Shown: positions 1,964-25,587, counted from the first letter of the stretch. The stretch is 32,000 nucleotides of DNA from Candidatus Helarchaeota ASGARD archaeon Hel_GB_B (GCA_005191425.1 SUPR01000028.1:1-32000), one strand, 5' to 3'. The notes: a model not told the origin generated them from the sequence alone. Numbers and translations: made by a program.

Positions 1964-2498
1964 AATAAAACGAAATATTTTACCTAAAATTCTATTTATT
2001 ACAGGTATCTTTTGTATTTTAAGCTCGAGCATTTTATTTATTGTTTTAATTTTTAATTATGCAAGTATCCCGCAATTTTTTTATTCTATGGACAACCCTC
2101 AATTGACAGTCATAATAAATATAGTTTTATGGGGAATTCTTTCTGCTTTACTACTTGAAATTGGACTTAATTTTCACCAGAAATCTAAAGATTTTAAAAA
2201 GTTTAATACTGAACCGATAATGTCTGTTAATATTATTGCTTTTATTGGATACATCCTGGTTTTTACGGTTATAACATTTATTATCTTATTTTTATTACAA
2301 ATTATCCCATCAATTAATTATTTTCCCCACCAATTACTATCTGAAGATGCTGTTCCTATTGACCTCTCCAACTTATTTAATTTATTCTTGATCTATTTTA
2401 TGATCAATATTATTTATAGGTCTGGGTCCAGATTATTGGGCCGGTCTATTAAATTATCTCAAATTAATAATAAAATAGTTAATAAAGAGCTTGATTGA
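1956..2498 (+). CDS. 4-TM membrane protein built from two copies of a TM-hairpin unit
   Basis: GTG start overlaps the upstream ORF; four hydrophobic helices; C-terminal PIDL..LFN......IIYRSGSR....SIK. Confidence 0.75.
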   Translation: MIKIKRNILPKILFITGIFCILSSSILFIVLIFNYASIPQFFYSMDNPQLTVIINIVLWGILSALLLEIGLNFHQKSKDFKKFNTEPIMSVNIIAFIGYILVFTVITFIILFLLQIIPSINYFPHQLLSEDAVPIDLSNLFNLFLIYFMINIIYRSGSRLLGRSIKLSQINNKIVNKELD

Positions 2499-4159
2499 AA
2501 TTGAAACGAAATTATAGTATTTCATTAGTACTTTTAATATTTAGCCTTTCTTTACTCATTACGCTTTCTAATATTTCACCTATTGCTGAATCTGGTGAAA
2601 AATATTGGGAGAGCACTCCAATTGTTGAGACACACCATTATCCAGGTCATCTTAGTAATGAAACAAATCTTCTTTGGTTCGTTCAAATAACAGATGTTCA
2701 TATTAACTCTTTTGAAAAAATATTTGGTGTCCAATCTGAATTACTTAGACAAGCTTTAAATGATATTAAAAATTACATAAAACCGTCCTTTATTATTGAT
2801 ACAGGGGACCTTGTTAATGGACTCAATCCATTACCATATCACCAGAACCCGCAACAATGGATGATAAGATATAAAGTCTTACAGGATACTCAAATGAATT
2901 CCTCTTTTTATTATGACCTTGTTGGAAACCATGATGGTTATGGGAACTCAGATAATTTTTCTTATTTTCTTAATTGGTCAATTCAGAAAAAACTACAATA
3001 TACATTCAATAGGTCAATTGGAAATTCAAATTATACCTTTATTGTACTAAATTCAGTCTGGTCTAATGGTGCTGAATGGCCAGATGGGACCAGTGGAGAA
3101 CTTAATACATCTGAACTTGATTGGTTTGAATCTCAATTAATTAAAAACAAAAATTCTAATTTGACTTTTGTCTTTCAACATCACCCATATACAGATGTGG
3201 GTAATTTCACTACTACTACTGGCAAATCTTTTATTGATTTACTTGAAGAATATAATGTTACTGCCGATATTTTCGGACATGGGCATGAAGATCTTGAGTT
3301 AAACCAGGGTGGGACGATTTGTATCGAAACCGGTACTCTCGGTCAAGGTGATAAATCTATTAGAATTTTTGCAATCGATAATGATGGCGTTTCTACAAAA
3401 GTTGGTGTCCTAAATAATTGGCCAATCGCTATGATTACAACTCCAATGGACAGAGACCTAACTCGTACTGCTTATGACATCCCTAATTCATCTAAAAGTG
3501 CCCCGATTCGAGCGATTGTATTTGATAAAAAGCCTATAATTAAAGTCGAATTCAATATCGATAATGGTCCTTGGTATAATCTAACTAATTCACCATTAAT
3601 AAAGCCACTTTGGAACGGCTCGTTTAATCCTTCCACATTATCAAATGGTATACACCACGTTAACTTAAGAGCAATAAGTGAATCCGGGATATCTACTGAT
3701 TCTGTTACAATTTTTATTGGTATTTCTAAAAAACCTGAAATTATTAATGGAAAAATTAAAGATGTTATTAGATATTCTGATGCAGGACCCCTTAGATACG
3801 ACCTTTCAATGTATAAATGGGACAAAGTTGACTCCAACAAACTTCTTAAATGGAATTTATCTAATGTTGACCCGTCATTTTGTAAAGTGCAAATAATTGA
3901 TAATGATACACTTCTTTTTACTCCTAATCCATCAGCAAGTGGGACTAAGTCCATTATAATCACTTTAAATGATACAGCTGGTTATTATACCTCTCAAGTT
4001 ATTCATATCACGCTATTATCGAGGTTCAACTCCAACCTTTTGGTCTTTTTTGTTACAATTCTTGAATTAATTATTGTCCCAATCTCTTTTTTATTAGGGA
4101 TTTTTTGGTATAAACTCTCTAAATTTAATATCTTTAAGAAATCTAAAAAACAGAAATAA
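2495..4159 (+). CDS. Membrane-anchored calcineurin-like metallophosphoesterase with Ig-like C-terminal domains (TMEM62-like)
   Basis: Intact motifs TDVH, TGDLVN, GNHD, QHHP, GHGH; N-terminal signal/TM segment; C-terminal TM plus basic tail; start overlaps the upstream stop (TTGA). Confidence 0.88.
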   Translation: MKLKRNYSISLVLLIFSLSLLITLSNISPIAESGEKYWESTPIVETHHYPGHLSNETNLLWFVQITDVHINSFEKIFGVQSELLRQALNDIKNYIKPSFIIDTGDLVNGLNPLPYHQNPQQWMIRYKVLQDTQMNSSFYYDLVGNHDGYGNSDNFSYFLNWSIQKKLQYTFNRSIGNSNYTFIVLNSVWSNGAEWPDGTSGELNTSELDWFESQLIKNKNSNLTFVFQHHPYTDVGNFTTTTGKSFIDLLEEYNVTADIFGHGHEDLELNQGGTICIETGTLGQGDKSIRIFAIDNDGVSTKVGVLNNWPIAMITTPMDRDLTRTAYDIPNSSKSAPIRAIVFDKKPIIKVEFNIDNGPWYNLTNSPLIKPLWNGSFNPSTLSNGIHHVNLRAISESGISTDSVTIFIGISKKPEIINGKIKDVIRYSDAGPLRYDLSMYKWDKVDSNKLLKWNLSNVDPSFCKVQIIDNDTLLFTPNPSASGTKSIIITLNDTAGYYTSQVIHITLLSRFNSNLLVFFVTILELIIVPISFLLGIFWYKLSKFNIFKKSKKQK

Positions 4160-4539: not shown

Positions 4540-4953
4540 TTACTCAAATTCTAAATCTAATTCTTCTGCTACTATTTCTATTAAGGCTCTTAGTTTCATG
4601 GCTTTAGCCATTTCACCTATGATTTTTAAGTCGCCTTGCATATAAGCGCTTGCGGCATCAGTTTCTCCAGTAAACATACCTTTTGCAGTTTCTTCGTTCA
4701 TCTGTAATGTGACATCTGGATCATCAATTTCACCTTCACCTGTAGTTAATTTATGATCCTCAATCTTTATCCAAGCTTTAATTGATTCCCCGGCATCAAA
4801 CTGAATCTTAACATCATCAGAGTCTTCTAATTCATCTTGAAGGTCTTCACTGCTAGCTGCTAACTCTTCTAGTGCACCTAAAAATATAGGTAAGCTTTTT
4901 GCTTCAAAATTTCCTTCTTCAATTAATTTTTTAACTTCATCTACTTTACCCAT
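4540..4953 (-). CDS. SCP2 sterol/acyl-CoA-binding domain protein, copy 1
   Basis: PDVTLQM...GMFTGETDAASAYMQGDLKIIGEMAKAMKL is the SCP2 signature; GAGGT SD upstream. Confidence 0.9.
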   Translation of the reverse strand: MGKVDEVKKLIEEGNFEAKSLPIFLGALEELAASSEDLQDELEDSDDVKIQFDAGESIKAWIKIEDHKLTTGEGEIDDPDVTLQMNEETAKGMFTGETDAASAYMQGDLKIIGEMAKAMKLRALIEIVAEELDLEFE

Positions 4954-5011
4954 ATTAAATACCTCATTATATCTTATTTTTTTAGAGGGTTCCTTTTTTG
5001 AAATTACTTAT

Positions 5012-5033
5012 ATTCGCATTAAATCACGCGAAT
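5012..5033. promoter_or_regulatory. Inverted repeat ATTCGC-N10-GCGAAT, candidate operator upstream of SCP2 copy 1
   Basis: Perfect 6-bp arms, CG-containing in very AT-rich DNA, about 60-80 bp upstream of the start codon. Confidence 0.3.
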
Positions 5034-5499
5034 TTAAAAATTTTAGATTAATATTTTAGTAATTTATTCCAAAAGGACATATAAAGATTCATAATATAAT
5101 TTAAAAATTTTTCTTACTTGAGAAAAATACAAGTATAATTATAAATTTTTTAAGGGGAGTTTTAGTAATGAGAGAAAATAAATAAAAGGAAAGAAATATA
5201 GACTTAATAAATGTGTAATGATATAAAAATAATTCAAATTAGAATGTCATTTTAAAAAATTGATCTTGAATAAATAGAATTAAGATAGAAATTTTATAGT
5301 TATTTTAGAAATTGTCAGTAGATTATTATAATAAAATAAGAGGAAAATTTCAAAATATAAAAGGAAACTTTTTAATTTTATATTGCTAAAAACATCATTT
5401 GAAGGATTTAATACATTCAAAATAAAAAGAAAGAAATAACATGATAATAAAATAAATAAAAAAAAGGAGAATATTATTATTTATAGAAAATCATCGAGA

Positions 5500-5913
5500 T
5501 TATTCTAATTCGAGATCTAATTCTTCTGCGACAATTTCGATGAGAGCTCGTAATTTCATAGCCTTGGCCATTTCACCGATAATTTTGAGATCTCCTTGCA
5601 TATAAGCGCTTGCAGCATCAGTTTCGCCAGTAAACATACCTTTACCAGTTTCTTCAGTCATTTGAAGAGTAACATCAGGATCATCAATTTCTCCTTCACC
5701 AGCAGTAAGTTTATGATCTTCTATTTTTATCCAAGCTTTAATTGTATCAATTACATCGAATTGAATTTTAACATCATCGGTGTCTTCAAGCTCATCTTGT
5801 AGATCTTCACTTGTTTCTGCTAGCTCTTGTAGTGCGCCCAAGAAGACTGGGAGATTCTTAGCTTCAAAAGCGCCATCTTCAATTAATTTTTTTACTTCAT
5901 CAATTTTACTCAT
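5500..5913 (-). CDS. SCP2 sterol/acyl-CoA-binding domain protein, copy 2
   Basis: 119/137 residues identical to copy 1 by manual alignment; GAGGT SD upstream. Confidence 0.9.
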   Translation of the reverse strand: MSKIDEVKKLIEDGAFEAKNLPVFLGALQELAETSEDLQDELEDTDDVKIQFDVIDTIKAWIKIEDHKLTAGEGEIDDPDVTLQMTEETGKGMFTGETDAASAYMQGDLKIIGEMAKAMKLRALIEIVAEELDLELE

Positions 5914-6125
5914 AAATCTAACCTCTATTTGGTCATTTAGTAGATCAAATTATTCTATTACTACAAGGAAGTTTATTTTTGTATATTAAGTATATTTACA
6001 AATATAGAATATATTAATAATTAAAAACTTCCGAATTTTATGTATATCATAAAAATTATGTTTAGTTATAAAGATTTTTCTTAACATAAAAAAGTTTAAA
6101 AAATAATTATTAAAGGAAAAAAGTT

Positions 6126-6160
6126 TTAATTAAAACCTGTAGAAGAGACGGGTTAATTAA
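6126..6160. promoter_or_regulatory. Imperfect inverted repeat in the divergent SCP2 copy 2 / copy 3 intergenic region
   Basis: TTAATTAA-AA-CCTGT-AGAAGAG-ACGGG-TTAATTAA can pair as 13 bp with a 2-nt bulge. Confidence 0.3.
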
Positions 6161-6438
6161 AGTCCACAAAAAATATAAAATGGCATGGTAAATAATAATA
6201 TAAATAAAATGAAGTGGAAAATTTAAAAAAAAACCATCAGCAGGATTGTAGTAGAATAAAATTTTGGATAAAGAAAAAAATTATTAAGAAAGAAAGAAAA
6301 AGAGCGAAAAAAATAAAAAGAAAAAATAATAAGAGTTAAATACAGAAATACAGAAATATTGAAATTAAATAAGAAAATTAATCAGAAAATTAATTTAGAA
6401 TTAGTAAAATATTGGTAAAAAAAAGGAAGTATTAAATA

Positions 6439-6852
6439 ATGGCTGTTGAAACAATAAAAACGAAGGTAGAAAGAGGAGAATTTGAAGCAAAGGATTTTGG
6501 GATATATTTAATGGCAATAAAGGAGTTGGCAATAAAAGATAACGAAGTTAGAGAAATATTAAGAGAAATGCCTGATTTTGTGATACAATTTTCGATTTTT
6601 GGGGCGATAGATGTATATTTACAATTAAAAAATGGAAATTTAGAAGTGGTAGAGGGAGTAATAGAAAACCCAGCAATAAAATTTGAGATGACAGATGTAG
6701 TAGCGACAGGGATAATAAAAAATGAAATAGATCCAATATCGGCATATTTATCTGGAGATATAAAAATAAATGGGGAAACTGTATTAGCGATGAAATTAAA
6801 GCCAATAATTGAGAAATATAATAAGATATTGGGGTTTAAAGTTATAACTTAA
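6439..6852 (+). CDS. SCP2 domain protein, divergent copy 3
   Basis: GEFEAK, IQF and IDPISAYLSGDIKINGETVLAMKL align with copies 1 and 2; also 137 aa. Confidence 0.88.
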   Translation: MAVETIKTKVERGEFEAKDFGIYLMAIKELAIKDNEVREILREMPDFVIQFSIFGAIDVYLQLKNGNLEVVEGVIENPAIKFEMTDVVATGIIKNEIDPISAYLSGDIKINGETVLAMKLKPIIEKYNKILGFKVIT

Positions 6853-7486
6853 AAAAGGCTTATAACCGAATCATGTAGAATTAGAATGGTGTAGTTTATA
6901 ATCGTAGATAAAATTATAGAATGTTTTCTGAAATATCTTTATTCTGTTAATTTTTTCGCTAAAATCGCAATCAGAACTTTGATCAGTGGACATAATAATA
7001 TTTAGCGTAAGAAGATATAAAAAGACCACAATAACAGAAGAAATGCGAGAATTAAAACGCCAAATTTTTAAAGGATGAGGACGAGAAAAAATGATGATAC
7101 ATAAGATGTAAGGTTAAAAGTAATAAAATACAGTGGGATAAGTCTTAAAATAGTCAAAAATAAAAATAATAAAAAGTAGATAAAAAATAAAATTACCCGA
7201 CTGAAATCAAGAGAATTATAAAATAATTTTAATAAGAAAAATAAAGAAAAAAAAAATTAAAATATTAAAAATGGGTTTGTAAATATCCTTAAGTCTGACG
7301 TTATTAAAATTACCAAATAAAATATTCAAAAAAAAAGTTAATAGAGTTAAAAAAAAATAATAATAATTGCAAAAAGCTATTCATTTTAAAAGAGGAATAA
7401 TGAAGGTTTAATTTAAAGGTCAATGGAATTAAATTTTTAAAGACATATTTTCCATTTTTTATAATAAAATATGTCGGAGTAAAATA

Positions 7487-8680
7487 ATGGAAGAAAAACC
7501 CGAAAGATTAAAGATTATGGAATATGAAGTTGAAAAAAAAGATTTTAAAGCAATATTTTCAAGTAATATAATTGAACCGATAATTAAATTTATTGAGAAG
7601 ACAAAAATATATAAAATATTTTCACGAGTACCAAAAATAGTATATTATTTTATTGGACGAGGTTTTAGTTGGGAATTTTTTGGTGAATATAAAAAAGAAA
7701 TGGTCAAAACAACAAGGAAAATTATGGGAAAATTAGTAAATAGAAAATATAGAGAAAAAACAGTTGAAGAGAGAGATTGGGTTATAAATGAAATAGTTTA
7801 CCATAATACAGTCTATATGACGGAACTATTTTTAGAAATAATTATATTATTACCATATTTTTGCCACGTGAGAGATATAGACAGATTTTTTAAAATTAAA
7901 GGACTTGATTATTTAGATAATGCATTGAAGAAAGAAAGAGGAGTAATATTAATCTCTGGGCATATTGGAAATTATTTATTTATGTGTTGTTATTTAGCAT
8001 TAAAAGGTTATAAAATAAACTTTATTTTAGAATACAGGTCATTCAGAGGTATTTTGAAATTATTAAAGAATTGTGGAATAAAGTTAATCCCAGTTCCAAG
8101 AATAGAAAACAATAAAATTAGAAACAAAATAAAAAAAATTATAGATAAAGCTTTAGATAATAATGAAATAGTAGTTATTATGCAAGATGCGGGCTTAAGA
8201 CATTATATGTTAATAGATTTTTTTGGTGAACCATGTCATACAGCAACAGGTGCTATATCTTTAGCATTAAAACATGGATCGCCGATTATACCAATTTTCA
8301 TTAGAAGTCAAGCTAAAAAACATGAGTATGAGATATCAATTTATCCTGAATTTAAGATTGAAAGAGAAAACATTAAGAACGATAAAGAAATAATTTATTA
8401 CAATACATATAGATTAAATAAAATACTTGAAGAGAAAATTAGGAGAAATATTATATATTGGAATAATTTAGCAATATATCATATAAGGAAATCGTTTAAA
8501 AAGAAGAACTTATTTGAGCAAAATTCAATTTTAGATAATTTAATCAACGAAATCCAATTTTTTAAAGATTATTTAAAATTTAGTTACGAAGTTAATAGAG
8601 ATGACGAAAAAATAGAAAAAATTTTAGATGAAGCGAATTTTGAATTTAGAAAAATGAAGGACGAACAATCTAAATCATAA
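7487..8680 (+). CDS. Lipid A lauroyl-acyltransferase (LpxL/HtrB/PatA-like) LPLAT family protein, paralog 1
   Basis: GLDYLDNALKKERGVILISGHIGNY and FFGEPCHTATGAISLALKHGSPIIPIF match family blocks. Confidence 0.82.
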   Translation: MEEKPERLKIMEYEVEKKDFKAIFSSNIIEPIIKFIEKTKIYKIFSRVPKIVYYFIGRGFSWEFFGEYKKEMVKTTRKIMGKLVNRKYREKTVEERDWVINEIVYHNTVYMTELFLEIIILLPYFCHVRDIDRFFKIKGLDYLDNALKKERGVILISGHIGNYLFMCCYLALKGYKINFILEYRSFRGILKLLKNCGIKLIPVPRIENNKIRNKIKKIIDKALDNNEIVVIMQDAGLRHYMLIDFFGEPCHTATGAISLALKHGSPIIPIFIRSQAKKHEYEISIYPEFKIERENIKNDKEIIYYNTYRLNKILEEKIRRNIIYWNNLAIYHIRKSFKKKNLFEQNSILDNLINEIQFFKDYLKFSYEVNRDDEKIEKILDEANFEFRKMKDEQSKS

Positions 8681-8803
8681 AATTTTATCTTAGTAATTTG
8701 AAAAACATTAAATTGGTCAAATAAATCCATAAAAATTAAGTTGTATAAAAAATCGATTTCAAAATAAATTTATTTTAAAAGTTTTAAGTCAATATTTCAT
8801 TAT

Positions 8804-9202
8804 ATGAAAAACAAATTAATTAAAGAACAATACAAATTTTTTAAAAGAATTCCACAGGTTAGACCAATAAAAGAGGGAGAAATATTAATAAAAATAGGGA
8901 ATTTACAGTTATTACTTCAATATATTAATGATGAAATAAACATAAATAATGTTAAGGATATAAACAAAGAAGATTTCTGTGTCTTAAAGATCTCAAGGAG
9001 TTCATTTAATTATATATTTAAAGCAAAAGATATAAATGATTATTATTCAAGGTTATTAAATATTGTTTTGTATAAAAAGGATATGAAACTAGAAGTAAAT
9101 GAAAATATTAAGCCAATGCGCAATGCTTTTTTTAAAATTTTAAGTATAAATCGAGGTAAAGGTGGAAAAAACAGATATGAATTGATGGTTGGATATTTAT
9201 AA
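8804..9202 (+). CDS. Hypothetical protein (possibly a highly divergent SCP2-like fold)
   Basis: 132 aa with codon usage like its neighbours; only a weak secondary-structure resemblance to SCP2. Confidence 0.55.
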   Translation: MKNKLIKEQYKFFKRIPQVRPIKEGEILIKIGNLQLLLQYINDEININNVKDINKEDFCVLKISRSSFNYIFKAKDINDYYSRLLNIVLYKKDMKLEVNENIKPMRNAFFKILSINRGKGGKNRYELMVGYL

Positions 9203-9376
9203 CGAATTTTTGTAGATATTTGATAAAAATATGGCATTTAAAAAAGTAATAAATATAATAAAGAAATAACGAAATTTAATAAATAGAAATTTTTTTTATT
9301 CAAATGAAATTAATTGAGTTAAATAAATGAATCATAAAAGTTTTCAATAAAAAATTAGTAATAATGATGAATAAAA

Positions 9377-10279
9377 ATGTTGCATTCAGTAATAATAATA
9401 AAAAAGGATTCCGGAATATGTCTTTTCAGTGAAAAAGAGTTAGATTTTGATTCTACATTATTTTCAGGATTTTTAACGGCGGTACAAAATTTTGCTGAAA
9501 ATTTGAAAATTGGGAGGCTAACAAGCTTTGTTACTAATGATAAGGTAGTAGTAATTTCATCGTCTGAGCAAGTGATTGCATCATTAATAGTAGATTTAGA
9601 AGATAATATCGATGATTGGTTCAGTAAAGCATATATAATTTGTGAAGAATTTGAAAAAAAATATAATTTAGAGGAATGGTCAGGGGAGATTGGAAATTTT
9701 GAGGAGTTTTCAGAAATATTAAAAGAAATATTCAAATCGGAAAAGAAAAACTTTTTAGTAGAAGTAGCTAAATGGGCCAAAAAAGAATTTGGTGGAGAAT
9801 TACAAATTAATGCCTTATTGAGTCCGGAAAAAGGGGCATCAAAATTGAAGGTGGATATATTATTAGATCGAGGAGAACTAGATATTTCAACAATATATGA
9901 CAAGCTTTCGGTTTTTCGATTTCAAGGATTAAAGAAAGACATAATATTTATTAAAGTAATTGATGGAATTGTAGGACGAGGAGAAATAAAAGACTTCATT
10001 GAATCTGTAGAACAATTTGGACAGATGGAAATTGACGAGAAAGACGAAGAAATATTTCCATATTTCCCAAAAATGATCGTAATAGTAGGTAGAGAATTCT
10101 CGGATACAGTATTCGATCTAACAGATAAATTATATAGAGTAAAAAATAAAAAGCATTTTATTCAGTCTAAAAATTTAAATTTGAAATTATTAGGCCCAAT
10201 TGGAAAGTTAGAAATTTTCAATGCATGGGTAGAATATTGGAAATGGAAAGAACCATACCCAGAGAGAATATTTAAATAG
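9377..10279 (+). CDS. Longin-domain protein fused to a C-terminal restriction-endonuclease-like (PD-(D/E)xK) fold
   Basis: N-terminal LHSVIII..DSGICLF...STLFSGFLTAVQNFAE is typical of Asgard longins. C-terminal VDILL...IIFIK...IVG..EI.DF...IVIVG..FS resembles Mrr-type nucleases. Confidence 0.7.
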   Translation: MLHSVIIIKKDSGICLFSEKELDFDSTLFSGFLTAVQNFAENLKIGRLTSFVTNDKVVVISSSEQVIASLIVDLEDNIDDWFSKAYIICEEFEKKYNLEEWSGEIGNFEEFSEILKEIFKSEKKNFLVEVAKWAKKEFGGELQINALLSPEKGASKLKVDILLDRGELDISTIYDKLSVFRFQGLKKDIIFIKVIDGIVGRGEIKDFIESVEQFGQMEIDEKDEEIFPYFPKMIVIVGREFSDTVFDLTDKLYRVKNKKHFIQSKNLNLKLLGPIGKLEIFNAWVEYWKWKEPYPERIFK

Positions 10280-10349
10280 TCATAAAAAGAATACCGAATT
10301 TTCAGTTTTCCATATTAATATTTCAATAATAAATTTTTGTGAGAAAAAT

Positions 10350-11519
10350 TTGTCATTCAAATTAAAAGATTTAATGCCTACAAGAAAAATAATAGAGAGC
10401 GAAGAAGAAATTTTTTATATATTCAATGTAAAAATGGTAAAAAACATTATAGAAATTTTCAAATTTTTTAGATTATATTCGTTTTTCCCAAAAATACCCA
10501 AATCATTTTTAAAATTTTTAGCTCAAGGAGTAAGTCACGTAGTAATAAAAGATGAAACATACAACCAACCAATTATTAAATTCATTAAAAAGATTTTAGG
10601 GAAAAAGATTAATGAAAAATATCCTGGGAGAGAAAAATACATAATAAACAGGATTTTATTTCACAATTTTATAAAAATGTTTGAATTCTTTTTTGAAATA
10701 ATATTATTGATGCCTCATTTTAATATGTATAGACAAATTGATGAATATGTTAAAATAAAAGGACGTAATTATTTAGATAATGCGCTAAAAAAGGGTAATG
10801 GAGTAATAATAGTTTCGGATCATATCGACAATTATCTTCTGTTTCTCATGTTCTTGGCTTTATCGGGTTATAAGGTAAATATAATAATGCAAATTCAGAG
10901 TTATACAAGTATTTTAAAAATTTTAAAAGAATCAGGATTAAAAATAATACCTAGCCCACCTTCAGGAAATGAGAAATTAAGGATAAAAATAAGAAATTTA
11001 ATAGAAAAAGTATTATATAACAATGAAATTTTAATTATTTTACAAGATTTTGGGAGCCAACACTATAAAATAATGGATTTTTTTGATGAACTATGTTATA
11101 CACCAATTGGAGTAGTTTCGCTAGCCTTAAAGTATAATTCACCAATTCTTATGGCTTTTTTCAAGAGTAACAAAAAAAAGTATAGATATAAGATAACAAT
11201 TACCCCTGAATTTAAAATTGAACGCAATTCAGACAAAAAAGCAGATATAATTTTACATAATACGTATAATATAAATAAAATTATAGAAAAACACATAAAA
11301 AGAAATATAATCGATTGGATGATAATCCCAATTTATTATAATAATAGGATATACAAGATTGGTGATATTAAAGATGAAGGTTCTCTTGTTAAAAAAATAT
11401 TGAATAAAATTCAATTTTATGAAAATTTAATAAATAAAAGTTATGAACCAGGACGAGATAGTAAGAAGATTATTTTAGTTTTAAACAAAATGAAGGAAGA
11501 GTTAAAAAGACTGGAATAA
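10350..11519 (+). CDS. LpxL/HtrB/PatA-like acyltransferase, paralog 2
   Basis: GRNYLDNALKKGNGVIIVSDHIDNY and FFDELCYTPIGVVSLALKYNSPIL; co-linear with paralog 1, including the C-terminal YE..RD..KI extension. Confidence 0.82.
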   Translation: MSFKLKDLMPTRKIIESEEEIFYIFNVKMVKNIIEIFKFFRLYSFFPKIPKSFLKFLAQGVSHVVIKDETYNQPIIKFIKKILGKKINEKYPGREKYIINRILFHNFIKMFEFFFEIILLMPHFNMYRQIDEYVKIKGRNYLDNALKKGNGVIIVSDHIDNYLLFLMFLALSGYKVNIIMQIQSYTSILKILKESGLKIIPSPPSGNEKLRIKIRNLIEKVLYNNEILIILQDFGSQHYKIMDFFDELCYTPIGVVSLALKYNSPILMAFFKSNKKKYRYKITITPEFKIERNSDKKADIILHNTYNINKIIEKHIKRNIIDWMIIPIYYNNRIYKIGDIKDEGSLVKKILNKIQFYENLINKSYEPGRDSKKIILVLNKMKEELKRLE

Positions 11520-11618
11520 AAATACCGAATATTAATAAAATAATTACTAATAAAATTATAAAAAGGTGAATATTTAGATTATTATTCAATGTTTTATAGA
11601 TAATTTTAAATTAATGGA

Positions 11619-12365
11619 TTAAAAATTAAGAAATCGGTTTATTTTAAGAATGGAGAAAATACTTACAATTGGTTTAAAATTTCCACCAAGCATATTAATT
11701 TTAATTGCGATAATATATAGTTTTTTTAATAAATATATAATACGGTTTTTAATTTTATCAAGGAAAGAGATTTGGTCGGATTTTTTAGCAAATGTTATTG
11801 AGCCAATGAAACCGATATTTTTGAATTTGTTTCCCATAAAGAGATATTGATAAATGACCTTTTTAGGACCCTTATAAAAACCTAAAGTGTCATGAAAAGC
11901 AATAATTCCAGAGTTAACTAAAAATGGTTCCCATAATTTATAGTCAAGAAGAACATATTTAAATTCATGAGCCCCATCTATCCATAGAAATTCGATTTTT
12001 TTACCATCCCATTCTTTTGCTGCTTTTTGAGATGTTTTAACAATGGGGACAACAATATTATCAAGTTTATACTTAGAAATATTTTTTTTAAAAATTTCAA
12101 AAGTCCAAACTTTTCCGTACCAATCTTTATGTTCAGAAGAGCCAGTGTGCGGGTCGATAGCATAAACTTTAATATTTTTTCCTGCTACTGAGCCTTTACC
12201 AAGCCATATTGTTGACTTTCCATGCCAAGAGCCAATCTCAAGGATAACCCCTTTACCAGTGCAACTTTTAGCCGTGTTATATAGAAAAATTGCCTCTTTA
12301 TCTAAAAGCCAGCCCTTAATACTGGATGTAGACTTTAGCAAATCATTAATTTCGGTTTCAGACAT
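11619..12365 (-). CDS. Class I SAM-dependent methyltransferase (Methyltransf_24-like)
   Basis: LEIGSWHGKST motif I, IDPH, FLWIDGAHEF and GIIAFHD. Confidence 0.88.
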   Translation of the reverse strand: MSETEINDLLKSTSSIKGWLLDKEAIFLYNTAKSCTGKGVILEIGSWHGKSTIWLGKGSVAGKNIKVYAIDPHTGSSEHKDWYGKVWTFEIFKKNISKYKLDNIVVPIVKTSQKAAKEWDGKKIEFLWIDGAHEFKYVLLDYKLWEPFLVNSGIIAFHDTLGFYKGPKKVIYQYLFMGNKFKNIGFIGSITFAKKSDQISFLDKIKNRIIYLLKKLYIIAIKINMLGGNFKPIVSIFSILKINRFLNF

Positions 12366-12612
12366 TTATATGAAGTCCTTTTATAATGTATTTATTAATA
12401 ACAAATAATTTAATATGACAAATATTTTAGAGATAAGCCCATTAAATAAGAATTTAAATTTTGTTAATTATATTTATTTAAATTTTTTAAGATTAAGAAC
12501 TATGTTAAATATTTAAAAATGTTAGATATAAGTCTCTATTTATTTATAATTTGAAATTATTAATAAAATTATGAATAAAAAAAGAAATGAGACCAATGAA
12601 GGTTAGAAATAG

Positions 12613-13770
12613 ATGAGACGTGTCGGGATTATAGCTGCTGGTGAGTCGAAATTTGGAGCACGAGTAGGAATGGAATATGAAGAGTTGTTTGTTGAAGCAT
12701 TTTTAGAAGCGATGGGACAAGTAGATAATTTAGAATCTAAAGATATTCAAGAAGCTTTTGTTGGTTCTTTAGCTTTTGGTGGTTCTCAACTTGGAAATAT
12801 GTCAGCACTTGTTGTTGACTCAGTAAATTTAATAGGAATACCTGCATCAAGAGTTGAAAATGCTTGCGGTTCAAGTGGATATGCTTTACGATATGCTATA
12901 ATGTCAATTGCTTCTGGAATAAATGATATAGTGATTGCAGGTGGAGTTGAAAAAATGCAAGATATTAGCAAAGCAACAAGGTTATATTGGTTTGGAGTTG
13001 CGGGCGACATAAAATGGGAGCGTTTATCTGGTATGACATTTCCTGGAAATTATGCTTTAATGGCGACAAGGCATATGAAAGAATTTGGTACAAAAAAGGA
13101 AGCACTCTCAAGTGTTGCTGTTAAGAATCATGATTTTGCTTCAAGAAATCCAAAAGCTCAATTTCAAAGAAAAATTACATTAGAACAAGCAATGAATGCA
13201 CCAATAGTAGCGTACCCATTAAATATTTATGATTGTTGCCCAATTACGGACGGTGCTTCTTGTGTCATTTTATGTGATTTAGAAATTGCAAAAAAATATA
13301 CAGATACACCTATTGAAATTGTTGGATTTGGTGCCGGGACAGACCATTTGGCATTATATCAAAGAGAATCAATCACAAGAATAGATGCTGCAGTGAAAGC
13401 AAGCAAAATGGCATTTAAAATGGCAAATTTGCAACCTAAAGATATAGAGGTGGCTGAAGTGCATGACTGTTTTACTATTGCAGAAATTTTAGCTTATGAA
13501 GATATTGGGTTCTGTAAAAAAGGTGATGGAGGAAAAATGATTTTAGACGGAGAAACTACTATTCATGGGAGAATTCCAGTAAATACAGGAGGAGGGTTGA
13601 AAGCGAAAGGACACCCAATCGGAGCAACAGGAACAGCTCAAATATATGAAATATTCAAACAATTAAGAGGCGAGCATGAGAATCAAGTGCATGATGCAAC
13701 AATTGGATTAACGCATAATGTAGGAGGCACGGGCTCTGCCTGTACGGTTACAATATTGAGGAGAGTATAA
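12613..13770 (+). CDS. Archaeal/SCPx-type thiolase (acetyl-CoA C-acyltransferase)
   Basis: VENAC(85)GSSG, EVHDCFTIAE, GHPIGATG and THNVGG motifs intact. Confidence 0.93.
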   Translation: MRRVGIIAAGESKFGARVGMEYEELFVEAFLEAMGQVDNLESKDIQEAFVGSLAFGGSQLGNMSALVVDSVNLIGIPASRVENACGSSGYALRYAIMSIASGINDIVIAGGVEKMQDISKATRLYWFGVAGDIKWERLSGMTFPGNYALMATRHMKEFGTKKEALSSVAVKNHDFASRNPKAQFQRKITLEQAMNAPIVAYPLNIYDCCPITDGASCVILCDLEIAKKYTDTPIEIVGFGAGTDHLALYQRESITRIDAAVKASKMAFKMANLQPKDIEVAEVHDCFTIAEILAYEDIGFCKKGDGGKMILDGETTIHGRIPVNTGGGLKAKGHPIGATGTAQIYEIFKQLRGEHENQVHDATIGLTHNVGGTGSACTVTILRRV

Positions 13771-13773
13771 AAA

Positions 13774-14802
13774 ATGAGTAATAATGTAGGGATTATAGGT
13801 TATGGTACATACATACCAAGATATAGGATTAAAAAGGAAGAATATATAAAAACATGGGGGCATTTTTCAGGAAAAATTGAAGAAAAATCAGTAATAGGAT
13901 ATGACGAAGATGTTATTACAATGGCAGTGGAAGCCGGATATAATGCTATCCACAATTCAAGGATAAATAAAAATGACTTAAAATTAATTGCTATTGGAAG
14001 TGTATCATCTCCATATAATGTCAAATCAATGGCATCTGAAGTTGCAATGGCACTAGGACTACCAATGGACATATTATTATTAGATTTTACAGAATCAGAG
14101 AAAGCAGGGACAACAGCATTATCTACGGGAATTGATATAATAGAAAATAAGGGTGGATATGGTCTTATCATAGGGTCAGATGCGCCGCTAGCAACCCCTG
14201 GAGATAGCTTGGAACATGTACAAGCTGCAGCTGCAGCTGCAATAGTTATTGGGAACAATAATAAATCCATTGCCGAAATAGTTGGTAAAAAAACGGCAAA
14301 TATTGAATACATTTCGGATAGATTTAAAAGAAATGGAACAAAAATGATGAAAGACTTAGAAATTGCACCATACTCAAATTATGCTTATAATAACACTATC
14401 AAAAAAACAGTTAACGATTTAACAGATGAGTTAAAGATCAAACTTAATGAATTTGATCATGTTTATATTCAAGGCCATGATTCAAGGCAACCCACACGTA
14501 TTTTTAAACAATTAAATAAAAATAAAATTTATTTGGATACTCTTAGAATTATTGGAGATACAGGTGCAGCATCTGCATTATTGGGTTTAAATGCAATATT
14601 ATATTACAAAGCAAAAGAAAACGACAGAATTCTAATAGTTTCATATGGTTCGGGAGCTGGAAGTGATGCACTTGGAATAAAAGTAAATAGAAAACAAGAT
14701 AAAATTAATGAAATTCCTACAATTGACCAGTATATAAATAGAAAAGAGTATATTAATTATGAAAAATATTTAAAATTTAAAGAATTAATAGATTTGGATT
14801 AA
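13774..14802 (+). CDS. HMG-CoA synthase-like protein, apparently catalytically degenerate
   Basis: Archaeal HMGS scaffold (VGIIGYGTYIPRYRI, DEDVITMAVEA, VSYGSGAGSDA), but GSVS replaces GSES, ESEKAGT replaces FACKAGT, and YIQGH replaces VFHQP. Confidence 0.85.
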   Translation: MSNNVGIIGYGTYIPRYRIKKEEYIKTWGHFSGKIEEKSVIGYDEDVITMAVEAGYNAIHNSRINKNDLKLIAIGSVSSPYNVKSMASEVAMALGLPMDILLLDFTESEKAGTTALSTGIDIIENKGGYGLIIGSDAPLATPGDSLEHVQAAAAAAIVIGNNNKSIAEIVGKKTANIEYISDRFKRNGTKMMKDLEIAPYSNYAYNNTIKKTVNDLTDELKIKLNEFDHVYIQGHDSRQPTRIFKQLNKNKIYLDTLRIIGDTGAASALLGLNAILYYKAKENDRILIVSYGSGAGSDALGIKVNRKQDKINEIPTIDQYINRKEYINYEKYLKFKELIDLD

Positions 14803-14819
14803 TAAAAGGTGAATTAAAA

Positions 14820-15242
14820 GTGGCACATGTGTCAATTCCTAAATATTGGAAAGCTTTACCGCAGAAATATAGATTAGTGGCAGGAAAATGTTCAAATTGT
14901 GGAGAGTTGAATTTTCCACCGACTACATTATGTAAAAAGTGTGGACAAGAAAATACTCAAAAACACATCGAATTAAAAGGAAAAGGTACAGTATATACAT
15001 ATACAATTATTGGAAGAGGAGGAGCTCCTCCGGAATTTGCAAAAATGCAAAAAAAATGCGGGCCATACGCAATAGCCATAGTAGAACTAGAAGAGGGACT
15101 AAAAATAAACGTACAATTAACGGATTGTGATCCTTTCAAAGATGTAAATATAGGAATGAAAGTTTCAGCAGTTTTTAGAAGAATATATGAACAAGAAAAT
15201 GTAATAAGGTACGGTCTAAAATTCAGACCAATTATTGAATAA
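14820..15242 (+). CDS. DUF35 Zn-ribbon/OB-fold protein (thiolase scaffold, acyl-CoA binding)
   Basis: CSNCG...CKKCG zinc ribbon, GTVYTYT, IVELEEG, YGLKFRP; AGGTGA SD before a GTG start. Confidence 0.93.
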   Translation: MAHVSIPKYWKALPQKYRLVAGKCSNCGELNFPPTTLCKKCGQENTQKHIELKGKGTVYTYTIIGRGGAPPEFAKMQKKCGPYAIAIVELEEGLKINVQLTDCDPFKDVNIGMKVSAVFRRIYEQENVIRYGLKFRPIIE

Positions 15243-15301: not shown

Positions 15302-16366
15302 ATGATCGAATTTAAAAAAATAAAAAAATATGCTGAATTTCATAATCCAATGTATAATTTTGAATTAAAAAAACAGAAAGTAGAGTTCAGAGAGGACCCA
15401 TTAACTGGTCAGAATTGTATAATTCCAGAGTCGCTATTAGATAAAGTAAAAATCATAATGAATAAACCATCTAAAAATATAATTCAAAATATTATCGAAA
15501 ATACCCAAGCTGGATGCCCATTTTGTCCAGATAAAATAATGACGCAAACACCAAATTTTGACGAAAAAATTATTCCAAACGGAAAAATTCAAATTGATGG
15601 AGCAATTGGATTTCCAAATATTTTCTCTTTTTTTGAACATTCTGCTGTTATTGTATTTACCGAGAAACATTTTTTAAATTTAGATGAATTTTCACCAGAT
15701 ATAATTTATTCTGCATTAAAAGTTGCAAGGGAATACACGCATTATATATTAAAAGAATATGAAAATGTTGAATGTAACTGTATTTTAGGTTGTAATTATT
15801 TATATTCGGCAGGTTCTACTATCGTACATCCGCATTTTCAACTTTATTTGTCAGAAAATAATTTTTATTATAATAAAATACTATTGATAAATAGTAAAAA
15901 GTATTTTGAAAAAAATAAAAAGAATTTTTGGGATGATTTAATTAATTCAGAAAAAAATTTAAAAGAACGTTATATAGGGGCAATTGGGACTACAGAATGG
16001 CTTGTTTCATTTGCTCCTCTAGGGGTATATGAAATCCAATGCATAGTTAAAAATAAAACATGTATTCATGAATTTACAGATAATAATCTTAAGGATATAG
16101 CTCAAGGATTATCTAATGTATTAAAATTTTATCATAAAAATAAAGTTACTTCTTTTAATTTTGCTTTATATTCTGCGCCATATAAATCTAAAGATAATTT
16201 AGATGAAATTAGAAAATACTTTTGGAGCTCTATGCGAATTATTGCTAGGCCAAATATAAGTAAAATTCCGCTAAATGATGTTTGGTTTCTCCCAAGGCTT
16301 ATATATGATAATATTTCTCCAGTTGAACCTGAGAAATTATTACAAAAAGTTCAAGATTTTTTTTAA
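15302..16366 (+). CDS. GalT-like HIT-superfamily nucleotidyltransferase (divergent)
   Basis: DPLTG, CPFCP and AGSTIVHPHFQ (HxHxQ) motifs. Confidence 0.78.
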   Translation: MIEFKKIKKYAEFHNPMYNFELKKQKVEFREDPLTGQNCIIPESLLDKVKIIMNKPSKNIIQNIIENTQAGCPFCPDKIMTQTPNFDEKIIPNGKIQIDGAIGFPNIFSFFEHSAVIVFTEKHFLNLDEFSPDIIYSALKVAREYTHYILKEYENVECNCILGCNYLYSAGSTIVHPHFQLYLSENNFYYNKILLINSKKYFEKNKKNFWDDLINSEKNLKERYIGAIGTTEWLVSFAPLGVYEIQCIVKNKTCIHEFTDNNLKDIAQGLSNVLKFYHKNKVTSFNFALYSAPYKSKDNLDEIRKYFWSSMRIIARPNISKIPLNDVWFLPRLIYDNISPVEPEKLLQKVQDFF

Positions 16367-16488: not shown

Positions 16489-17913
16489 TTAAATTTTATT
16501 ATCTTTTACACTAGCTCGTTTATTTTCATGAATTTTTTCAAGTTCCTCTCTCATTTTTTGTAACCTTTCGCCGTGTAATGGAAATTTTATCAAACAAATT
16601 ATAGCAATACAAATAGCAAGAATAGGAAATACTACCATTAAAGATTTTAGGCCAAAAATTACATTAATATTAGGATTCGGTGTATATTCTGCCCAACCAG
16701 CTCCGGTAAACACTAAGGCTACAGTAGTTATTCTTAATAAGATAGAGAATCTATGAATGAATGCATTCATTCCATAATAACTGCCTTCTCGTCTACAGCC
16801 AGTTTTTGTCTCGTCTTCATCAATTATATCACTAATTAAAATATCTACATAATATAATGCTCCGGACAATGGAAAACCGACAATTGCAGTAAATATAATA
16901 CACAAGATAATATCTCCTGAACCTAGAAAAATATATGGTATCATAGTAAAGCACCAGATTATACAACTTATTATAAATGCCTTTCTAAAACCAAATTTTT
17001 TCCCCATTTTTCTGTGGATAGGAAAAGTAAACGCAGCAACAATAAATGCAGCAATTAGTGGTAGGCCTGAGAGAAAGGTTGATTCAGGAGGTATTTCTAA
17101 TACATAAGCAGCATATAATGGAAAAATAGTCGGTAAAAGACCGAATACATACCAAACAAATGTATTTGCTATAACAAAAATGAGAAAACTTTTGTTTTTT
17201 AATGTTATTTTTGCAGCTTCTACAAAACCAGGGCCTTTCTCTACATCATATGCATATTCAGGACGTTCTTTAATACCAAAAAGGACAAAAAATATCCCAA
17301 TACATCCAGTTATTATCGCCAAAAAAATACCATTTATAATGTATTTTGGAAAAATTTCAGTTGCAGTTATTCCATTTTTAGGAACCATTGGAGTAATAAT
17401 AAAGGTTGGGACTACTATTGCAAAAATTAAAGCTATGACAGTAAAACTTTTTATAAAAATATTTGCAGAAGCTCGTTCTTTTTCTGAAGGAAACATTTCC
17501 GGAAATAATGCATTAACATTTACTGAATATAAAGTATAAACACCTTCATTTACATTAATTATAATGAGAAAATAGATAAAATTAATTAAATTGCTTGTAA
17601 ATGGAGCAGTATATAGGAAAATCATTAGCAAACATAATGGCACAAAAGCTATCGTTATATAAAACCGACGTTTACCAAACTTCTTAAACAATTTTGTTCT
17701 GTCTGACAAAAGACCTAATAATGGGTCATTTATAGCATTCCAGATACCCCAGATAGTAAATCCAATCCATAATTGCGTCATATTAAGTCCAATTACGCTA
17801 TAGTAAAATGTGAATACTAGAAATGTAAATGATTGATATGTTAATTGATCAGGAATAGCACTTAAACCAAAAAGAAACTTTTTCTTTAAAGTTGCACCCT
17901 CTTTCTGACTCAT
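16489..17913 (-). CDS. MFS glycoside-pentoside-hexuronide (MelB-like) transporter
   Basis: About 12 TM; NAINDPLLGLLSDRT, FGKRR and DIIDEDETKTGCRREGSYYG signatures. Confidence 0.9.
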   Translation of the reverse strand: MSQKEGATLKKKFLFGLSAIPDQLTYQSFTFLVFTFYYSVIGLNMTQLWIGFTIWGIWNAINDPLLGLLSDRTKLFKKFGKRRFYITIAFVPLCLLMIFLYTAPFTSNLINFIYFLIIINVNEGVYTLYSVNVNALFPEMFPSEKERASANIFIKSFTVIALIFAIVVPTFIITPMVPKNGITATEIFPKYIINGIFLAIITGCIGIFFVLFGIKERPEYAYDVEKGPGFVEAAKITLKNKSFLIFVIANTFVWYVFGLLPTIFPLYAAYVLEIPPESTFLSGLPLIAAFIVAAFTFPIHRKMGKKFGFRKAFIISCIIWCFTMIPYIFLGSGDIILCIIFTAIVGFPLSGALYYVDILISDIIDEDETKTGCRREGSYYGMNAFIHRFSILLRITTVALVFTGAGWAEYTPNPNINVIFGLKSLMVVFPILAICIAIICLIKFPLHGERLQKMREELEKIHENKRASVKDNKI

Positions 17914-18460: not shown

Positions 18461-19441
18461 GTGGTTGATAAGATGACGGAGTTGCGCTGGAATCCAATTC
18501 TTCAAGAATGGACAATTATAGCTGGACATAGAGCTATAAGGCCGCAAGTGCATAAAAAAGCTAATATAATGGAGAAAAGTTGTCCATTTTGCGAGGGACA
18601 AGAAGAAGTAGAGGGCGAATGGATTGTAAAATACTTACCAAATAAATACCCTTCTTTGCAAATAAAACCACCAGAACCAAGTGTTTTAGGGAATGATTTA
18701 GTACCAGTTTTACCAGCAAAAGGGGTTTGTGAGGTAATAATATACACGAAAGACCATTATAAAACTTTGGAACGACTTCCTGTTGACCATATTGTTAAAA
18801 TTATTGAATTATGGACTAATAGATATGAAGAGATTGGTAAAATTAGCGAAATTAAATATGTCTTTATATTTGAAAATACAGGAACTGAAATTGGAGTTTC
18901 CTTAGACCATCCACATGGTCAGATCTATTCTTTTCCATTTATCCCACCAAGAATTAAAGTAGAATTAAATTCATCAAAATCCTATTTTGAAAAAAATGAG
19001 AAATGCCTTTATTGTAGCATCATAGAATTCGAGATAAAAGATAAAAAAAGGATCATTTTTGAAAATGATGATTTTGTTTGTTTTATACCATTTTTTTCAC
19101 AATATGCATATGAGACATTTTTGATCCCAAAAAGACACATTCAAAGTCTTTCAGATTTAAAAGAAAATGAAATTAGAAATTTTGCTATAAGTTTAAAGCA
19201 GATTTTAAATATATATAGAAAAAGATTTCCCAATCAGCTTGATTATTTAATGCTTTTTCATCAGAAACCTACAACGGAAGAAAACTACGAATATTTTCAT
19301 TTTTATGTAGAATTTATAGTAATTCAAAGGGGAGGAGGAAAAAAGAAATATTTGGGAGGAGTTGAAAGAGGTACTGGGACTATTATAAATTCATCTAATC
19401 CAGAAAAAAATGCTAAAGAATTAAGAGAATTAAAAAATTAG
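18461..19441 (+). CDS. galT: Galactose-1-phosphate uridylyltransferase
   Basis: ELRWNP...RAIRP, CPFC, PNKYP, GVSLDHPHGQ and PEKNAKELR; ATG at 18473 is an alternative start. Confidence 0.9.
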   Translation: MVDKMTELRWNPILQEWTIIAGHRAIRPQVHKKANIMEKSCPFCEGQEEVEGEWIVKYLPNKYPSLQIKPPEPSVLGNDLVPVLPAKGVCEVIIYTKDHYKTLERLPVDHIVKIIELWTNRYEEIGKISEIKYVFIFENTGTEIGVSLDHPHGQIYSFPFIPPRIKVELNSSKSYFEKNEKCLYCSIIEFEIKDKKRIIFENDDFVCFIPFFSQYAYETFLIPKRHIQSLSDLKENEIRNFAISLKQILNIYRKRFPNQLDYLMLFHQKPTTEENYEYFHFYVEFIVIQRGGGKKKYLGGVERGTGTIINSSNPEKNAKELRELKN

Positions 19442-25044: not shown

Positions 25045-25587
25045 TTATTTTACTATTTTATTTGTCATTAAACGTGCTAGATAAATAAAAGCTTCTAATA
25101 CATTTGTGCCATCAGCGGCAGAAGTTTCAAAAAATTTTGCATTTACTTTTTCTGCCATTTCTTTTATTTCTTCAGTAGATTTTTTTCTAATTTCAGTGAG
25201 GTCAATTTTATTAGCAATTAAAACGCGGGGAATATCGCCGGAGTATTTGAGTAAGTCATCAAACCAATGTGGAATATTATTAAATGTTTCAGGTCTTGTG
25301 ACATCAAATACAAGTATAGCAGATGAAGCACCTTGATAATACAAATGGCGGACATCTTTCCATTTACTTTGTCCAGCTATGTCCCACATTAACAAGCGGA
25401 TATTATCGCCATTTTCCTGAATTTCCTTTATCACAATATTAGTGCCCAAGGTAGGTTTGTATTCTTTAATAAATTTTTGTTCTGCAAAACGATTAATTAG
25501 TGATGTTTTACCAACTGCGCCATCACCAATAACTACGACTTTGAATACATATCTATGTTTTGATTTTTCATCCATATTTATAATCAC
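25045..25587 (-). CDS. Rab-like small GTPase (Asgard type)
   Basis: G1 GDGAVGKT, G2 YKPT, G3 WDIAGQ, YYQGA, G4 NKID, G5 ETSAA; no C-terminal Cys; ATG at 25575 is an alternative start. Confidence 0.93.
   Translation of the reverse strand: MIINMDEKSKHRYVFKVVVIGDGAVGKTSLINRFAEQKFIKEYKPTLGTNIVIKEIQENGDNIRLLMWDIAGQSKWKDVRHLYYQGASSAILVFDVTRPETFNNIPHWFDDLLKYSGDIPRVLIANKIDLTEIRKKSTEEIKEMAEKVNAKFFETSAADGTNVLEAFIYLARLMTNKIVK

Follow-up and report, generated by a model that had tools for sequence, protein, structure and literature searches.

The closest described relative of the two acyltransferases at the centre of this work, AT1 and AT2, which are encoded in a 32,000-nucleotide stretch of Asgard archaeal DNA (SUPR01000028.1:1-32000; the window), is PatA, the phosphatidylinositol-mannoside (PIM) acyltransferase of Mycobacterium (5F2T, 5OCE, 7OJT), for which catalytic roles of His126 and Glu200, a charge relay through Glu200 and use of palmitoyl-CoA are on record (PMC8519569). 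LpxL and LpxM (5KN7) share with AT1 and AT2 the Pfam family (PF03279) and the fold, but their substrates, acylated acyl carrier protein (acyl-ACP) and Kdo2-lipid IVA, are not to be expected in this archaeon. Downstream of the two genes, the window holds a trio of thiolase, hydroxymethylglutaryl-CoA synthase (HMGS)-like and DUF35 genes, a three-gene architecture shared with the mevalonate complex of M. thermolithotrophicus (6ESQ/6ET9). Another such complex, that of P. fluorescens (PfACAT/HMGS-DUF35; about 1,000 'minimal' bacterial loci), was described by Liao et al. 2026 as a combination of an HMGS devoid of its catalytic tetrad with an HDxF thiolase and DUF35, which cleaves acetoacetyl-CoA and forms neither acetoacetyl-CoA nor HMG-CoA, while C-acylases of the PhlACB type are additionally without the thiolase HDxF motif (PMC12960953). 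As for archaea, pairs of ketothiolase (KT) and DUF35, of which there are 3.8 per Asgard genome, have been proposed as parts of a fatty-acid synthase, a complex that requires reductase and dehydratase partners (bioRxiv 2024.07.05.601840).

Against this background, the window contains a real, conserved and lineage-specific gene cluster centred on two PatA-like, presumably acyl-CoA-dependent and probably active acyltransferases with SCP2 partners. The gene cluster itself, which had been noted in a first-pass annotation of the window, is hereby confirmed; the interpretation that came with it, an ACP-independent route in which the thiolase trio supplies acyl-CoA, SCP2 carries it and the acyltransferases esterify a glycolipid or other acceptor, is partly supported. 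The literature searched yielded neither an account of PatA/LpxL-type acyltransferases in archaea nor anything relevant on Asgard, SCP2 and thiolase together. The window corresponds to contig C105 in a metagenome-assembled genome of 3.54 Mb (G000; 182 contigs, 93.7% complete, 28% GC), and the names on near-identical and related public proteins point to Helarchaeota-like Lokiarchaeia. Comparisons below are with other genomes of the order (G001-G006), with individual loci or metagenomic contigs (L-numbers) and with Asgard families (f1-f3, f5).

Two PatA-like acyltransferases and their SCP2 neighbours

AT1 and AT2 are the sole Lip_A_acyltrans (PF03279) members of the genome, 41-43% identical to each other and well above the family cut-off (Table 1), so their first description as LpxL/PatA-type acyltransferases holds. 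As a paralog pair in one locus they recall the LpxL/LpxM pair and the tandem acyltransferase fusions of bacteria. PatA is their best match in the PDB by sequence (E 4e-5) as well as by fold: Foldseek with the AlphaFold2 (AF2) model of AT1 (pLDDT 79.5) returned PatA at a TMt of 0.75-0.80 (root-mean-square deviation about 3.6 A) and LpxM at about 0.6. H159 and D234 of AT1 align to PatA His126 and Glu200 and are invariant across the 14 members of a family alignment, and AT2 carries the same dyad (SDHIDNYL / LQDFG). Both proteins are strongly basic and have no called transmembrane (TM) helix (AT1 shows no TM-like hydropathy segment, AT2 a borderline one), features in which they agree with PatA; the N-terminal TM anchor and HX4E motif of LpxL and LpxM are missing from them. 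The likeness to PatA has limits, however. Identity is only about 17%, and scores of 45.9 (AT1) and 29.1 bits (AT2) are far under the cut-off (209) of the NCBIfam PatA equivalog NF005919, just as the LpxL/LpxM equivalogs TIGR02207 and TIGR02208 are widely missed (54.5 vs 297.8 bits and 21 vs 336 bits, respectively). Moreover, AT1 and AT2 add a 70-aa C-terminal extension, in which a SYExxRxD motif invariant in the 14-member alignment is found, and PIM pathway context is not seen. Judged from residues and fold, both enzymes look catalytically competent, come closest to PatA, a glycolipid acyltransferase dependent on acyl-CoA, and are probably active. As to their donor, the premise that the host lacks ACP is borne out inasmuch as the genome, 93.7% complete, yielded no PP-binding protein; acyl-CoA is therefore the likely donor for AT1 and AT2, which fits its use by PatA.

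AT1 and AT2 form a tiny, Asgard-only clade with a PatA-like fold. Among 1.84 billion representatives, HMMER retrieved only 16 matches at E <1e-30, and the 4,861 weaker ones are bacterial family members of the usual 300 aa, among them tandem fusions of two acyltransferases and fusions of an acyltransferase with ELM1. A metagenome scan with an acyltransferase alignment gave only marine bacterial LpxL-like loci (24-31% identical), a genome scan only the G001 contig. Among the sampled genomes, the acyltransferases occur in the window's own family, in family f5 and, as four paralogs, in G003; searches of about 290 further Asgard genomes, representing 29 families, did not find them, and none of the 69 genomes of the largest family sampled carries them. 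Being small and confined to a few Lokiarchaeia-level lineages, it is thus a lineage-specific trait rather than a general Asgard feature. Acyltransferase domains of the PlsC type (PF01553) occur once in G000, as three tandem copies in a single 876-aa frame (C119:23027-25231, minus strand).

All three SCP2 genes exceed the Pfam gathering score for PF02036, so that the three carriers initially proposed stand. The two type A copies are 87% identical, whereas SCP2-B is about 30-35% identical to type A; copies 1 and 2 have orthologs in L053 (82% identity to L053:157-570 and 85%, respectively), and SCP2-B has orthologs upstream of AT1 in L053 (62%) and on contig C411 of G001 (69%). Searched against the PDB, the SCP2 profile matched solved SCP2 structures, the best being eukaryotic SCP2 and SCPx domains (1e-9 to 4e-7). 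Since three of the nine SCP2 matches of G000 lie together with both acyltransferase genes inside 7 kb of the window, and since this order recurs in other genomes, the clustering is not due to chance. A complex of AT1 with SCP2-B was predicted at a median score of 0.48 (best control 0.00), which we count as a weak pass in its support, given that, for pairs not already likely to interact, passes up to 0.60 are wrong more often than right. The runs agreed in at least 97% of contacts with a partner pLDDT of at least 84, and the mark applied was reached by 58 of 80 solved pairs and 2 of 110 mismatched ones.

Other SCP2 genes of G000 adjoin genes for CoA-transferase III, for Fe-alcohol dehydrogenase together with aldehyde:ferredoxin oxidoreductase, and for enoyl-CoA hydratase, which fits a general carrier of hydrophobic CoA-pathway intermediates. 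At C9:33760-38155, two SCP2 genes flank an Fe-alcohol dehydrogenase, a 4Fe-4S protein and an aldehyde:ferredoxin oxidoreductase. GC skew in the window is -0.27 at 4-5 kb and +0.44 at 6-7 kb, a flip that coincides with the strand change of the SCP2 genes. A fourth SCP2-like gene had also been suspected in orf132. This candidate is ruled out on sequence, as it has no family match in Pfam or NCBIfam and profile comparison with the SCP2 genes gave a probability of 0.1, that is no similarity; the sole lead toward an SCP2 fold comes from a low-confidence Atlas model (pLDDT 0.60) with a TM of 0.55-0.6 to SCP2-containing clusters. L054 has a counterpart of orf132 (orf131, 40% identical), L053 has none.

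The thiolase, HMGS-like and DUF35 trio

The three genes are tightly packed (intergenic gaps of 3 and 17 bp). Both the family score of the thiolase (Table 1) and the motif in its sequence bear out the label of an HDCF-type enzyme; the NACGSS cysteine and GHP (GHPIGATG) are kept as well. Its best PDB match is the acetoacetyl-CoA thiolase 6ESQ_A (E 1e-88), and among the ~8 thiolases of G000 it scores best against the M. thermolithotrophicus model. The HMGS-like protein likewise finds its best PDB match in the M. thermolithotrophicus complex (E 2e-46). Aligned to 6ESQ HMGS, however, the tetrad E-C-H-N reads V-E-Q-D, so that Glu, Cys, His and Asn are all replaced and the earlier name of a pseudo-HMGS is apt. 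Loss of the tetrad (Cys to Glu, His to Gln, Asn to Asp; motifs ESEKAG, IQGH-type and GD(T/S/C)) is seen in 9 of 9 orthologs, a set that comprises sequences of two metagenomic contigs and of six further genomes of the order, belonging to families f1-f3. The functional HMGS of G000, which keeps E, C, H and N, is encoded separately (C95:15953-17590), in the company of HMG-CoA reductase and mevalonate-pathway kinases.

With its tetrad dead and the true HMGS residing in the C95 mevalonate operon, we rejected the trio as an entry point to the mevalonate pathway. In that operon (C95:12998-17590), HMGS measures 545 aa with a C-terminal Cys/His-rich extension and is followed by HMG-CoA reductase and kinase/decarboxylase-like genes; a thiolase gene is not adjacent. 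Nor do we retain the option of a PhlACB-type C-acyltransferase. Although PhlACB and SmaATase, which are Friedel-Crafts C-acyltransferases, have in common with the trio a dead HMGS-like subunit, the H-to-Q and N-to-D exchanges and a GDTGAAS motif, their thiolase has lost HDxF, while that of the window retains HDCF and is without polyketide synthase (PKS) or nonribosomal peptide synthetase context. Because the tetrad is lost and HDxF retained, we place the trio in the class that pairs a dead HMGS with a live thiolase. It resembles the P. fluorescens complex in its tetrad-less HMGS, the preserved thiolase residues (Cys/HDxF/GHx) and the DUF35 partner, and differs from it in being made of three separate genes in an archaeon with DUF35 unfused, in the strict conservation of the ESEKAG replacement in all nine orthologs and in that its thiolase is the closest copy in G000 to the archaeal mevalonate-pathway thiolase. 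By these traits the trio is of known type, a three-gene archaeal version of a class whose biochemistry has been described, and adds little itself. Further sets of thiolase, dead HMGS and DUF35 genes lie at C150:45120-47725 and C93:21033-23677 in G000, the C93 copy with HMGS-like and DUF35 parts fused (485 aa).

As for a role in fatty-acid synthesis, family searches of the 32-kb window found the KT/DUF35 pair but no ketoreductase, dehydratase or enoyl reductase; MaoC genes are found elsewhere in G000, and the trio ortholog of G002 is followed by a MaoC dehydratase gene. G000 as a whole encodes at least 14 AMP-binding ligases, MaoC and crotonase (enoyl-CoA hydratase) proteins, ~8 archaeal thiolases, 7 DUF35 proteins and an MCR-alpha-like protein, so its acyl-CoA metabolism must be rich. 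The MCR-alpha-like match (C103:30835-31227) sits inside a 609-aa frame, and the gene is consistent with an alkyl-CoM reductase and hence with a supply of alkane-derived acyl-CoA. An HDCF-type thiolase is also what the window shares with eukaryotic SCPx, on whose origin the locus had been expected to shed light. Yet the SCP2 genes of the window are unfused, 6-8 kb away from the thiolase gene and linked to acyltransferases instead, and DUF35, the partner of the window's thiolase, is lacking in SCPx, so that a specific bearing on the origin of SCPx is not supported by the present evidence.

Gene order in related genomes and competing explanations

The expectation that the linkage is conserved across Asgard genomes holds among close kin and fails beyond them. 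L053 shows the order SCP2-A, SCP2-B, AT1, orf300, AT2, methyltransferase, trio, GalT-like and MFS_2, and L054 has, on one strand, AT1, orf131, orf302, AT2, trio, GalT-like and URO-D, then MFS_2 and GalT. L079 keeps orf300, AT2, thiolase and HMGS-like, and G001 has the order in part, one small contig bearing SCP2-B, an unrelated gene and AT1, a second one orf300, two further genes, the trio and GalT-like. In all, the order is met in four to five related metagenomic genomes. Relative to the window, identities in these cluster-bearing genomes are 87-90% for thiolases, 45-56% for AT1/AT2 and 60-86% for other cluster proteins; these are fairly close kin whose acyltransferases evolve fast. Across the order, the thiolase is 70-90% identical to that of the window, but the orthologous trios of sister families (G002-G006; thiolase 70-79%) have no acyltransferase, SCP2 or GalT-like neighbour and the trio is therefore separable from the acyltransferases. 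In L062, MFS_2, AT1 and orf300 are without an adjacent trio, and so is the AT2-type gene of L061, which lies between two Acyl_transf_3 genes. The four G003 paralogs have as neighbours MoeA genes, actin and TFIIB genes, a GT2/GT21 glycosyltransferase gene, and a CoA-transferase gene plus a different trio. At L035:9502-12095 (G003:C49), the paralog directly adjoins the actin gene (PF00022, 443 bits) and the TFIIB gene. The last of the four was considered as an independent second case of acyltransferase-trio adjacency and rejected, its 58% ortholog (P0037) having no trio nearby.

In the AF2 model of orf300 (pLDDT 84), an N-terminal longin/roadblock domain and a C-terminal PD-(D/E)xK-like, nuclease-like domain are predicted; Foldseek matches are the longins of AP sigma, COPI zeta, Ykt6 and Sec22b as well as EndoMS. 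In L053 and L054 its orthologs (60-73% identical) are flanked by the two acyltransferase genes; in L062 and L079 they adjoin one of them. Homologs (61-65%) in L057:9029-10876 and L078:4720-6552 come directly after an Arf/Gtr1-RagA-like GTPase gene, with no acyltransferase gene nearby. In family f5, an acyltransferase homolog of 460-470 aa adjoins a Gtr1/RagA-like GTPase of 423-437 aa (L072:9010-11704, L074:7324-10054, L075:8447-11178), with Methyltransf_11 and TtuA-like genes flanking the pair. This GTPase is 33% identical (E 1e-25) to that of L057 and ends in a long acidic coiled-coil tail, which shows no profile similarity to orf300.

The reading we tentatively favour, as possible rather than probable, starts from what has been shown above on the identity of the genes, the fold and conserved catalytic residues, the dead tetrad, the phyletic distribution and synteny, and sees the region as two modules that have been made neighbours in one Helarchaeota-like family, one for acyl transfer (acyltransferases and SCP2), the other an order-wide thiolase complex. 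The former (about 4540-11519, probably together with the MFS_2 gene) would be lineage-specific, with AT1 and AT2 acting as peripheral-membrane O-acyltransferases of the PatA type. Their His/Asp charge relay may move a fatty acyl group from acyl-CoA to the hydroxyl of a membrane-bound acceptor, most likely an archaeal glycolipid or phosphoglycolipid that would be acylated on its sugar or polar headgroup, and the two SCP2 types might hand over or buffer hydrophobic donor or acceptor, with the longin protein orf300 as a presumed conserved partner of the acyltransferase pair. A glycan or lipid context is seen with several acyltransferase homologs, namely in the GT2/GT21 neighbour in G003, Acyl_transf_3 in L061 and MFS_2 next to AT1 in L062. 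The second module (12613-15242) would be a complex whose active thiolase is held on a scaffold of DUF35 and dead HMGS-like protein and which cleaves or forms 3-ketoacyl-CoA (acetoacetyl-CoA) within general acyl-CoA metabolism, not as a dedicated supplier to the first.

Several findings weigh against this two-module reading. The acidic residue of the classical HX4(D/E) motif is missing: where PatA keeps Asp at +5 (HSGNWD), a hydrophobic residue is found throughout the clade (HIGNYL in AT1, HIDNYL in AT2), so acyltransferase activity is deduced solely from the PatA-type dyad, and D234 of that dyad borders a low-confidence loop in the AT1 model. Distant acyltransferase homologs occur in mixed contexts (MoeA, actin/TFIIB, GTPase) that bespeak no single acceptor pathway, and the association with longin and GTPase genes points to a role outside lipid biosynthesis. 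Finally, the L054 genes from AT1 to GalT-like are co-stranded with gaps of no more than 128 bp, a layout which leaves room for co-transcription of the acyltransferases with the trio and hence for a functional tie.

Such a tie is at the heart of an alternative, in our view unlikely, that takes 4.5-19.4 kb for one island and one pathway, with the trio making acyl-CoA, SCP2 carrying it, the acyltransferases esterifying a glycolipid and GalT/MFS_2 supplying or exporting the sugar. It can draw on the gene order kept in L053, L054, L079 and partly G001, on the operon-like, same-strand arrangement of L054 (AT2 and thiolase 56 bp apart), on the GalT-like gene directly after DUF35 wherever its position is readable (window, G001, L053, L054) and on the G003 paralog that lies beside a CoA-transferase gene and 1.3 kb from another trio, as well as on the abundance in Asgard of KT/DUF35 pairs proposed as fatty-acid synthase parts (bioRxiv 2024.07.05.601840). 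What stands of the ACP-independent route first put forward are the absence of ACP, the PatA-like nature of the acyltransferases, the conserved SCP2-B/AT1 order and the weakly predicted complex between the two; what does not is the step from the trio. Genomes with the tie are close kin, the orthologous trios of G002-G006 do without any other part, the acyltransferases of L061 and L062 and most homologs in f5 and G003 do without an adjoining trio, as does the ortholog (58% identical) of that G003 paralog which lies near a trio, and the window offers no ketoreductase, dehydratase or enoyl reductase; the characterised dead-HMGS complex, moreover, only cleaves acetoacetyl-CoA (PMC12960953), and G000 has many alternative sources of acyl-CoA. 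Rather than glycolipid, the acyltransferases might serve an Asgard small-GTPase/longin system, lipidating a protein (longin, Rag/Arf-like GTPase or cargo) or remodelling a membrane lipid under GTPase control. Anchoring to membranes would then be comparable to the eukaryotic acylation of Arf, Ragulator and Ykt6, and the conserved place of orf300 between AT1 and AT2, its homologs behind GTPase genes in L057 and L078 and the same-subfamily GTPase next to the f5 acyltransferase homolog all speak for it. We nevertheless regard this as improbable: the Gtr1/RagA-like family has at least 10 copies in G000 and none in the window, so that adjacency by chance has to be reckoned with, the three f5 genomes belong to one genus and amount to a single observation, the f5 GTPase tail does not resemble orf300 and the pattern was noticed after the fact. 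No PF03279 member is known to acylate proteins. The association of longin and GTPase genes with the acyltransferases is thus a lead only.

Equally improbable to us is an acceptor outside the membrane, be it a surface glycan, the lipid anchor of a secondary metabolite as found in bacterial aryl-polyene clusters, or a small molecule, with the vicinity of SCP2, trio and GalT mostly an accident of history. Here one may cite the nearest non-Asgard word-index match (P0010, 28% identical), which comes from an aryl-polyene-like cluster (KS, KS, ACP, FabA, LolA), the Acyl_transf_3 genes flanking the L061 homolog, a family typical of glycan O-acylation, the GC content of the acyltransferase genes (23% vs a genome mean of 28%) and their fast evolution (45-56% vs 87-90% for the thiolase), as is often seen with accessory surface functions. 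The conserved SCP2-B/AT1 order with its weak pass in complex prediction, and a fold, dyad and lack of TM helix that suit an interfacial lipid enzyme, argue the other way, and neither PKS nor ACP genes were found in G000. More speculative again, and quite improbable, is the proposal that AT1 and AT2 represent an Asgard branch of PatA-like enzymes that works with the longin protein and Rag/Arf-like GTPases and acylates a trafficking protein or membrane lipid from acyl-CoA delivered by SCP2. If true, it would mean a prokaryotic forerunner or analogue of the acyl-based anchoring of eukaryotic GTPase/longin machinery, and ester-bound fatty acids in an ether-lipid archaeon. More generally, acyl esters on Asgard lipids or proteins, if they exist, would be a concrete and testable example, in the closest lineage to eukaryotes, of acyl chemistry in the style of bacteria or eukaryotes, separate from the PlsC/PlsY homologs that have been under discussion (PMC6737245). 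As a lineage-specific trait, the acyltransferases carry limited weight for eukaryogenesis but offer a clean target for expression and lipidomics.

Features of the locus and further genes

Family searches placed the methyltransferase, the trio and the downstream GalT genes where the first-pass annotation had put them (Table 1), with one amendment concerning GalT. The farther copy is a canonical galactose-1-phosphate uridylyltransferase with both Pfam domains of the family and is also present in L054. The nearer one, which starts 60 bp after DUF35, is merely a divergent GalT-like gene: it has the motifs, a galT_1 match under threshold and 25% identity over 200 aa to canonical GalT, and a PDB sequence search with its product gave nothing significant. 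Between the two lies the MFS_2 gene, which recurs in L053 and L054 and is found immediately upstream of AT1 in L062. The methyltransferase gene is present in L053, not in L054 or L079.

Table 1. Position, strand and supporting evidence of genes in the locus (window coordinates)
Feature	Position	Strand	Evidence and remarks
SCP2 type A, copy 1	4540-4953	-	PF02036, 51.8 bits; 137 aa, very acidic
SCP2 type A, copy 2 (tandem duplicate)	5500-5913	-	PF02036, 54.6 bits
SCP2 type B (SCP2-B)	6439-6852	+	PF02036, 39.3 bits; same strand as and upstream of AT1
AT1, acyltransferase of PatA/LpxM fold	7487-8680	+	PF03279, 84.4 bits (cut-off 22.3)
orf132, basic protein	8804-9202	+	no Pfam or NCBIfam match
orf300, between AT1 and AT2	9377-10279	+	AF2 model, Foldseek
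AT2, AT1 paralog	10350-11519	+	PF03279, 61.0 bits (cut-off 22.3)
Class I S-adenosylmethionine methyltransferase (Methyltransf_24)	11619-12365	-	PF13578, 80.6 bits
HDCF (archaeal SCP2-type) thiolase	12613-13770	+	NF004720, 495 bits, above cut-off
HMGS-like, catalytically dead	13774-14802	+	alignment to 6ESQ HMGS
DUF35 (zf-ChsH2 + OB_ChsH2_C)	14820-15242	+	PF12172 + PF01796
Divergent GalT/HIT-like	15302-16366	+	CPFCP and HPHFQ motifs; galT_1 E 5e-7, below cut-off
MFS_2 transporter	16489-17913	-	PF13347, 165.7 bits
Canonical galactose-1-phosphate uridylyltransferase (GalT)	18461-19441	+	PF01087 + PF02744

Outside the locus, the window encodes a secreted or anchored metallophosphoesterase (2495-4159) with weak Ig_TMM62 and Big_9 matches past its catalytic domain. 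A V4R-domain gene and the Ras-family GTPase gene whose start it overlaps lie at 25045-26183, and a second Ras-like GTPase of 318 aa is encoded at 26699-27655.

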